Assembly (NCBI RefSeq): GCF_988243305.1
Contig: NZ_OZ547136.1
Strand: one strand, 5' to 3'
DNA: 64,000 bases
Part shown: positions 18,164-18,346 of the stretch, piece by piece
How positions within the stretch are numbered: the stretch's first letter is position 1
Layout: every line of letters begins with the position of its first letter
Made by a program: the position numbers and the translations under genes
The notes under the pieces: generated by a model
Databases searched by the model: none
What the model was told of the DNA's origin: nothing
The model's input: only the letters and a program-made list of their open reading frames with translations

Positions 18164-18346
18164 ATGAACATAAACGGAAAAAACTCTTCTTTTACGCCTG
18201 AAGAGTTAATCAGGAAATATCATGAGGAAGCCCCGGTTGATTTAAAAAATAACCATGGCGATAAAATAAATGAGAAGAATAACAATAAACACATTACTTA
18301 CTTTCCCGTTGATGCCATTTTAGATGGGAATAAACATCTGCCATGA
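18164..18346 (+). CDS. Hypothetical small ORF (60 aa) between chaperone and SipB-like gene
   Basis: ORF track only; hydrophilic, weak RBS; unsupported. Confidence 0.2.
   Translation: MNINGKNSSFTPEELIRKYHEEAPVDLKNNHGDKINEKNNNKHITYFPVDAILDGNKHLP

Follow-up and report, generated by a model that had tools for sequence, protein, structure and literature searches.

A 60-codon orphan reading frame between eicA and eipB of the Escherichia coli eip island is probably a dispensable relic

Introduction

The sicA-sipB genes of Salmonella pathogenicity island 1 (SPI-1) are a chaperone-translocator operon of the Inv-Mxi-Spa family of type III secretion systems (T3SSs). The eip island of Escherichia coli has a chaperone gene, eicA, and a SipB-like translocator gene, eipB, and between the two lies a small open reading frame (ORF), here called orf60, which is the subject of this work. 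It is located in a 64,000-nt stretch of contig NZ_OZ547136.1 (RefSeq assembly GCF_988243305.1), hereafter the window, which is the E. coli chromosome around selC and carries setC, yicL, nlpA and yicS, followed by the eip island. In published descriptions, the eip locus consists of six genes, eicA, eipB, eipC, eipD, eilA and eaeX, and a small ORF between eicA and eipB is not mentioned in them (PMC11068852, PMC7058095, PMC4210603).

Orf60 was brought up by an original prediction made from the letters of the window, which described an unannotated 183-bp, 60-aa ORF between the chaperone and SipB-like genes, left it as either a real small protein or a spacer, and named conservation of the reading frame and dN/dS across homologous islands as ways to decide. 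The coordinates were exact (Table 1), and so was the remark that the translocator gene directly follows the chaperone gene in Shigella; the same applies to a Providencia plasmid and an E. coli plasmid. Here, we find that neither extreme fits. The length, the codon usage and the positional counterparts of orf60 in related islands speak for a coding history, while its near-neutral evolution and its frameshifts speak against a gene that is kept by selection. Orf60 is probably a lineage-restricted orphan in the eicA-eipBCD operon, a dispensable remnant of a former small gene between the chaperone and translocator genes.

Results

The eicA stop and the eipB start are 247 nt apart, and orf60 takes up 183 nt of this gap, with its ATG 9 nt past the eicA TGA. 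The predicted protein is hydrophilic and has 60 residues (MNINGKNSSFTPEELIRKYHEEAPVDLKNNHGDKINEKNNNKHITYFPVDAILDGNKHLP). In 5000 dinucleotide-preserving shuffles of the gap, which has 33% G+C, a plus-strand ORF of at least 60 codons arose by chance with P = 0.010. A codon-usage score trained on five island genes rated orf60 at +0.31 log2-odds per codon. Random codons free of stops and matched in base composition scored 0.03 ± 0.12 (P = 0.009), and genuine segments read in frame gave 0.42 ± 0.13, a range that includes the orf60 value. The base composition by codon position also resembles that of the island genes. Since both ORF length and codon usage are beyond chance, we conclude that orf60 bears the imprint of a coding sequence, i.e., that it has a coding history.

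Among 5426 complete E. coli genomes, 733 have the orf60 locus. Contrary to the original prediction, the ORF has an annotation: the Prokaryotic Genome Annotation Pipeline (PGAP) labels it “hypothetical protein”, with no function given, in about 730 of these genomes and in every E. coli locus that we fetched (fetched loci are denoted by L numbers). Two of these, L012 and L013, are identical to the window across orf60, and their product is labelled WP_001024524.1; related alleles include WP_001024517.1, WP_001024521.1 and WP_103253760.1 among others. In several genomes, including that of enteroaggregative E. coli (EAEC) 042, PGAP flags orf60 as a frameshifted pseudogene.

These frameshifts are common. 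When 59 carriers were sampled at even spacing, 19 (about 32%) had a length change in orf60, which was −1 nt in 11 and +1 nt in eight. The changes were mapped to a run of six adenines in L016 and L019, where the run is shortened to A5 and extended to A7, respectively; PGAP calls orf60 “frameshifted” in both loci, and eicA and eipB are intact. The A5 allele is also found in EAEC 042, the archetype strain for eip and for the T3SS 2 of E. coli (ETT2) and the strain used to characterise the eip locus and EilA, where it predicts a 34-aa product beside intact eicA, eipB, eipC, eipD, eilA and air genes. The pseudogene of this strain, EC042_RS31660, appears to be a late addition to the annotation because its tag sits between RS21295 and RS21300. 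Other shortened or twice-shifted variants of orf60 are present in the protein database. A programmed frameshift at T TTA AAA AAT was ruled out, as in each of the two shifted frames a stop codon is reached after a few codons at most. The named eip genes are damaged in single strains as well, with a frameshift in eipD (L001), eipB (L015) or eipC (L017) and an IS2 in eicA (L012). The reading frame is thus not conserved, neither across carriers nor across the related islands described below, where L024, L028 and L030 have no long ORF even though the L024 gap is of the same size.

To the same effect, the ORF showed no signature of purifying selection, that is, no ω clearly below 1 in the annotated frame. 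The alignment comprised 20 alleles: 16 of RefSeq genomes, that of the window and three of metagenome or Logan contigs. Their variant codons in orf60 are 13 synonymous and 36 non-synonymous ones, where a synonymous fraction of 0.19-0.26 is expected under neutrality, and these counts put ω at about 0.8 (95% interval roughly 0.44-1.7). By the Nei-Gojobori method (NG86), dN/dS is 0.53 for orf60 and 0.49 and 1.64 for out-of-frame controls, with 0.05 for eicA and 0.10 for the first 300 codons of eipB. Segregating sites amount to 0.217 per site over all positions of orf60, which is on a level with the 0.18 and 0.24 at the third positions of eicA and eipB; by codon position 1/2/3, they number 18/6/15 in orf60, 7/3/30 in eicA and 17/19/72 in the first 300 codons of eipB. 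No in-frame stop was found in orf60 among the 20 alleles, which is uninformative because only about 1.5 were expected. The proposed dN/dS analysis therefore came out near-neutral among the E. coli alleles and not purifying. This suggests that selection does not keep orf60 and now maintains its protein very weakly at most.

We found no relatives of orf60 outside E. coli, either in a word-indexed search of 5.8 billion clustered proteins or in an HMMER profile search of 1.84 billion representatives; two weak profile matches to long proteins were dismissed as unrelated. Pfam gave no match at E ≤ 0.01, the best NCBIfam match (E = 0.13) was below the cut-off, and the best match among the profiles of the Protein Data Bank (PDB) had E = 0.28. 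An AlphaFold model from a nine-sequence alignment contains two short helices and is of low confidence (predicted local distance difference test score 54.7, predicted template modelling score 0.19). Taken together, orf60 looks like an E. coli-only orphan. It is an ordinary ORF of this kind, weakly constrained or unconstrained, and already annotated by PGAP.

The translation signal of orf60 is weak, though its ATG is so near the eicA stop. Its duplex with the anti-Shine-Dalgarno sequence (−4.8 kcal/mol) is the weakest among the island genes and at the 9th percentile of background positions, while the Shine-Dalgarno sequence of eipB (−12.9 kcal/mol) is the strongest of the island. The short distance from the eicA stop makes re-initiation after eicA plausible. 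A promoter and terminator scan of 18155-18401 revealed no promoter-like or terminator-like site on the plus strand, Rfam had no match to the gap at E ≤ 1, and the minimum free energy fold of the gap showed no excess structure (z-score −0.63). Common alleles disrupt an 8-bp hairpin (AACTCTTC/GAAGAGTT) at 18182-18207 with no compensating change, and nucleotide conservation of the gap was not detectable between E. coli, E. albertii and L024.

We then traced the closest relatives of the eicA-encoded chaperone to their contigs and measured the gap from chaperone stop to translocator start (Table 1). In E. albertii, the orthologous island occupies the corresponding site, following yicS, and its chaperone and EicA are 70% identical; the three loci that we fetched from this species are mutually identical. 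The E. albertii gap contains an ORF of 70 codons (ORF70) with a strong Shine-Dalgarno duplex of −8.8 kcal/mol. ORF70 is longer than expected by chance (P = 0.004), uses codons like a gene (P = 0.013) and includes the string PELIKP, which fits PxLxxP exactly; the probability of such a match by chance is 0.03. The first codons of orf60 (ATG AAC ATA AAC) and ORF70 (GTG AAC AGT ATA AAT) look homologous by eye, and the remainder of the two ORFs has no similarity. A highly divergent third eip-like variant, whose chaperone has 54% identity to EicA, occupies 5001-10480 of L024 and L025 (GCA_009799345.1 and GCA_910664965.1), and this island adjoins a gene for an invasin-like inverse autotransporter. 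A gap of 170-320 nt is retained in six lineages whether or not it has an ORF, which leaves room for a role as a spacer or leader.

In two of the related loci, which are SPI-1-like, the gap holds an ORF that can be connected to the translocator itself. ORF94 of L029 matches the translocator of its own locus (E = 2e-7) and is collinear from Met1 with a sister translocator, with none of 5000 shuffles scoring as high; its length has P = 0.002 in gap shuffles. A hidden Markov model (HMM) built from translocators only found both ORF94 (E = 4.6e-6, 15.1 bits) and ORF81 of L037 (E = 6.6e-5, 11.3 bits), and the alignment of the latter sits on PTLKKP, an exact PxLxxP. The P/VxLxxP motif of IpaB/SipB-type translocators is reportedly bound by IpgC-type chaperones. 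In EipB, the motif reads PMLAPP, and its column is invariant in the translocator alignments. ORF94 and ORF81, both collinear with the translocator N-terminus from Met1 on, are thus truncated paralogues of it, including the chaperone-binding region. To our knowledge, “mini-translocator” genes of this kind have not been described. Profile searches of Pfam, NCBIfam and PDB with ORF70 and ORF94 were as empty as those with orf60.

Orf60 itself could not be assigned to this group. Its similarity to EipB is non-significant by BLASTP (E = 0.4), Smith-Waterman alignment with eight translocator N-termini gave shuffle P values of 0.07-0.12 at best, hhalign gave E = 0.27 over four columns, and the translocator-only HMM scored 2.8 bits on an Asn/Lys-rich stretch. 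There is also no P/VxLxxP; the nearest string is PVDLKN, in which Pro24 is polymorphic (P/T). Comparisons of orf60 with the other small ORFs were non-significant too; the best hint is a match of HITYFPVDAILDG in orf60 to HIVRVDADVLLKG in ORF94, with P = 0.012 before correction for four tests.

The features of the window and of the related loci are collected in Table 1. The PGAP product name of eicA, directly upstream of orf60, is “SycD/LcrH family type III secretion system chaperone”. The island is a mosaic in G+C content, with an adhesin core of ~0.61 at 27-32 kb, eip genes of 0.36-0.40 and a backbone of about 0.46-0.49. A metagenome-assembled genome labelled Collinsella sp. (L026, JAIJJM010000039.1) has an eicA 99% identical to the E. 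coli copy, which is most likely E. coli contamination of the bin.

Table 1 Features of the eip window and chaperone-translocator gaps in related loci
Feature	Sequence	Position	Strand	Gap (nt)	Description
eicA	window	17657-18154	+		class II (SycD/LcrH/SicA-type) T3SS chaperone; Pfam TPR_3, E = 2.5e-17
eicA/orf60 junction	window	18149-18166	+		Shine-Dalgarno-like GAGTGAG 18149-18155, eicA TGA 18152-18154, 9-nt spacer, ATG
orf60	window	18164-18346	+		60 codons; ATG 18164-18166, TGA 18344-18346
A6 homopolymer, orf60 codons 27-29	window	18244-18249	+		hot spot of A5/A7 frameshift alleles
orf60 codon 32 (GGC)	window	18257-18259	+		hypervariable among 20 alleles
orf60-eipB spacer	window	18347-18401	+		55 nt; near-perfect eipB Shine-Dalgarno AGGAGGTGA at 18390-18398
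eipB	window	18402-20183	+		SipB/IpaB-like (SctE) translocator; Pfam T3SSipB, E = 9.8e-11; PGAP names agree
eipC	window	20196-21347			SipC-like position in operon
eipD	window	21391-22740			tip protein gene
eilA	window	22943-24640			HilA-like
air/eaeX/iatC adhesin gene	window	about 24700-37000	-		downstream of eilA
orf60 pseudogene EC042_RS31660	L036 (EAEC 042)	3745-3926			NC_017626.1 4252744-4252925
ORF70	L020, E. albertii	6519-6731			uncalled; GTG start overlaps chaperone stop (GTGA)
ORF94	L029	4498-4782			called, 94 aa; overlaps chaperone stop by 4 nt
ORF81	L037	3504-3749			called, 81 aa; overlaps chaperone stop by 4 nt
Broken remnant	L028 (sister of L029)	4500-4781			
Gap	L034, E. coli plasmid T3SS			-8 (overlap)	no ORF
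Gap	L033, Providencia plasmid			2	no ORF
Gap	L032, Shigella pCP301, ipgC-ipaB			5	no ORF
Gap	L038			32	no ORF
Gap	L023			34	no ORF
Gap	L027			46	no ORF
Gap	L031, Y. enterocolitica			121	
Gap	L030			171	no long ORF
Gap	window, E. coli eip			247	orf60, 60 aa
Gap	L024, second “E. coli” island variant			255	no long ORF; 25% G+C
Gap	L020, E. albertii			263	70-aa ORF
Gap	L037			268	81-aa ORF
Gap	L028			282	broken remnant only
Gap	L029			323	94-aa ORF

Discussion

If orf60 is the relic of a small gene, as we think probable, its present behavior can most economically be pictured as follows. Orf60 would share an mRNA with eicA and eipB, because the gap has no promoter-like or terminator-like site. Ribosomes that end at the eicA TGA, 9 nt from the orf60 ATG with its weak Shine-Dalgarno sequence, would re-initiate at a low level, and the product would be a hydrophilic, largely disordered 60-aa peptide. 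The translation of eipB would be independent of orf60, via its own strong Shine-Dalgarno sequence within the 55 nt past the orf60 stop, and because of this ribosome-binding site, frameshifts in orf60 could persist and the frame could be lost without cost. As for the origin, the translocator 5′ end may have been duplicated in an ancestor and given rise to the ORF, a copy that is now degenerate in E. coli. This is no more than plausible, by analogy with the ORFs at the same position in L029 and L037, which are truncated translocator paralogues.

Several observations do not sit easily with this reading. The descent from a translocator is not borne out by the tests on the E. coli sequence, all of which were non-significant. 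About two thirds of the carriers have the orf60 frame open, and disruption of orf60 is by itself no proof of uselessness because many strains show decay of the entire ETT2/eip system. Variability drops in the last 16 codons of orf60 (0.10 segregating sites per site vs 0.26), and YFPVDAILDGNK at residues 46-57 is common to all intact protein variants; with three synonymous and three non-synonymous variants, however, these 16 codons give no signal of selection. Codon 32 encodes G, S, A, T, V or F among the 20 alleles; the cause could be a mutational hot spot or diversifying selection acting on a real protein. Finally, a metagenomic variant of 58 aa, P0004, can be read as the −1 allele of the 042 type from which one ATAAA unit has been lost at 18261-18270 (ATAAAATAAA). 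This second deletion, seen in a single contig, restores the original frame, and the variant could be a compensated frameshift or plain repeat slippage.

Some of these points would be expected if orf60 encoded a functional, fast-evolving small protein, a T3SS accessory or secreted protein that is translationally coupled to eicA and acts on the chaperone pool or is exported by ETT2, with the frameshifts being losses of function in decaying systems. The invariant YFPVDAILDGNK, the frame-restoring deletion and the hypervariable codon fit such a protein, as do the gene-like length and codon usage, the start close to the eicA stop, and the counterparts in E. albertii, L029 and L037 with their good Shine-Dalgarno sequences and chaperone-binding-like motifs. 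The N-terminus, MNINGKNSSFT, is rich in Asn, Ser and Ile, which is typical of type III signals, although this concerns composition only. We consider a functional protein unlikely, however, because its ω is not distinguishable from that of an out-of-frame control and because nearly a third of the carriers are frameshifted, among them EAEC 042 with an otherwise intact locus. The searches outside E. coli yielded no homologue, the Shine-Dalgarno sequence is the weakest of the island, PxLxxP is absent with Pro24 being polymorphic, and the structure model is of low confidence.

The two remaining explanations dispense with a protein. It is quite unlikely that the gap of ~250 nt has been retained for a cis-acting role, as an untranslated leader or spacer that uncouples eipB translation from eicA or holds a regulatory site and in which the ORF is incidental. 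What suggests it is that gaps of 171-323 nt occur in six divergent relatives with an open ORF or none, as opposed to 0-46 nt in classical systems, together with the strong Shine-Dalgarno sequence that eipB has of its own. The 3′ part of orf60 (18260-18350) and the Shine-Dalgarno-proximal segment 18380-18409 are also less variable than the 5′ part of orf60, but this low-diversity patch carries little weight because diversity varies greatly along the island, probably from recombination. The lack of plus-strand promoter-like or terminator-like sites, of an Rfam match and of excess structure, the uncompensated hairpin, and the absence of gap conservation between E. coli, E. albertii and L024 all argue against a cis-acting role. 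It is very unlikely that orf60 is a chance frame in an AT-rich spacer that was never coding, with the PGAP call as an ab initio artefact. The low G+C content of the gap, the absence of a family match, the neutral-like evolution and the ORF-free gaps of 171-282 nt in three related islands would all agree with it, and the P value of 0.01 is weakened by multiple testing in that the original prediction picked orf60 out of many gaps. Yet length and codon usage are two largely independent signals that reject chance, E. albertii, L029 and L037 also have long ORFs starting at the chaperone stop, and the first codons of orf60 and ORF70 look homologous by eye.

Retaining the reading of orf60 as a relic, we suggest that it can be treated as dispensable in annotating eip/ETT2 loci or in judging whether they are “intact”; EAEC 042 is already without the full-length product. 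The more interesting lead is that in eip-type islands the translocator gene is uncoupled from the chaperone gene by 170-320 nt, and that in at least two relatives, L029 and L037, this gap holds a truncated copy of the chaperone-binding N-terminus of the translocator. If such mini-proteins bind the chaperone, they would bring a new level of control to the free-chaperone signal by which effector genes are switched on in SPI-1 and Shigella. One may speculate further that some SPI-1-like islands, eip included, carry fast-evolving micro-genes that arose when the 5′ end of the translocator gene, with its chaperone-binding domain, was duplicated, are translationally coupled to the chaperone gene and serve as decoys that titrate the chaperone or time its release, and that orf60 is the E. 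coli member of this set, diverged beyond recognition and active where the allele is intact. We regard this extension to orf60 as a long shot.

Among the ORFs compared here, orf60 is like ORF94, ORF81 and ORF70 of E. albertii in its site, the gap between the chaperone gene and the SctE gene, and differs from them in that it starts 9 nt after the chaperone stop instead of overlapping it by 4 nt. The described systems closest to eip, namely Shigella ipgC-ipaB, the Providencia plasmid and sicA-sctE of the E. coli plasmid, have the same gene order as the eip locus, with a class II chaperone of tetratricopeptide repeats (TPR) followed by SctE, a SipC-like protein and the tip protein. In these systems, the chaperone and translocator genes are separated by 5 nt in Shigella and 2 nt on the Providencia plasmid and overlap by 8 nt on the E. 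coli plasmid, whereas in the eip island they are 247 nt apart, with orf60 and a strong Shine-Dalgarno sequence for eipB in between.
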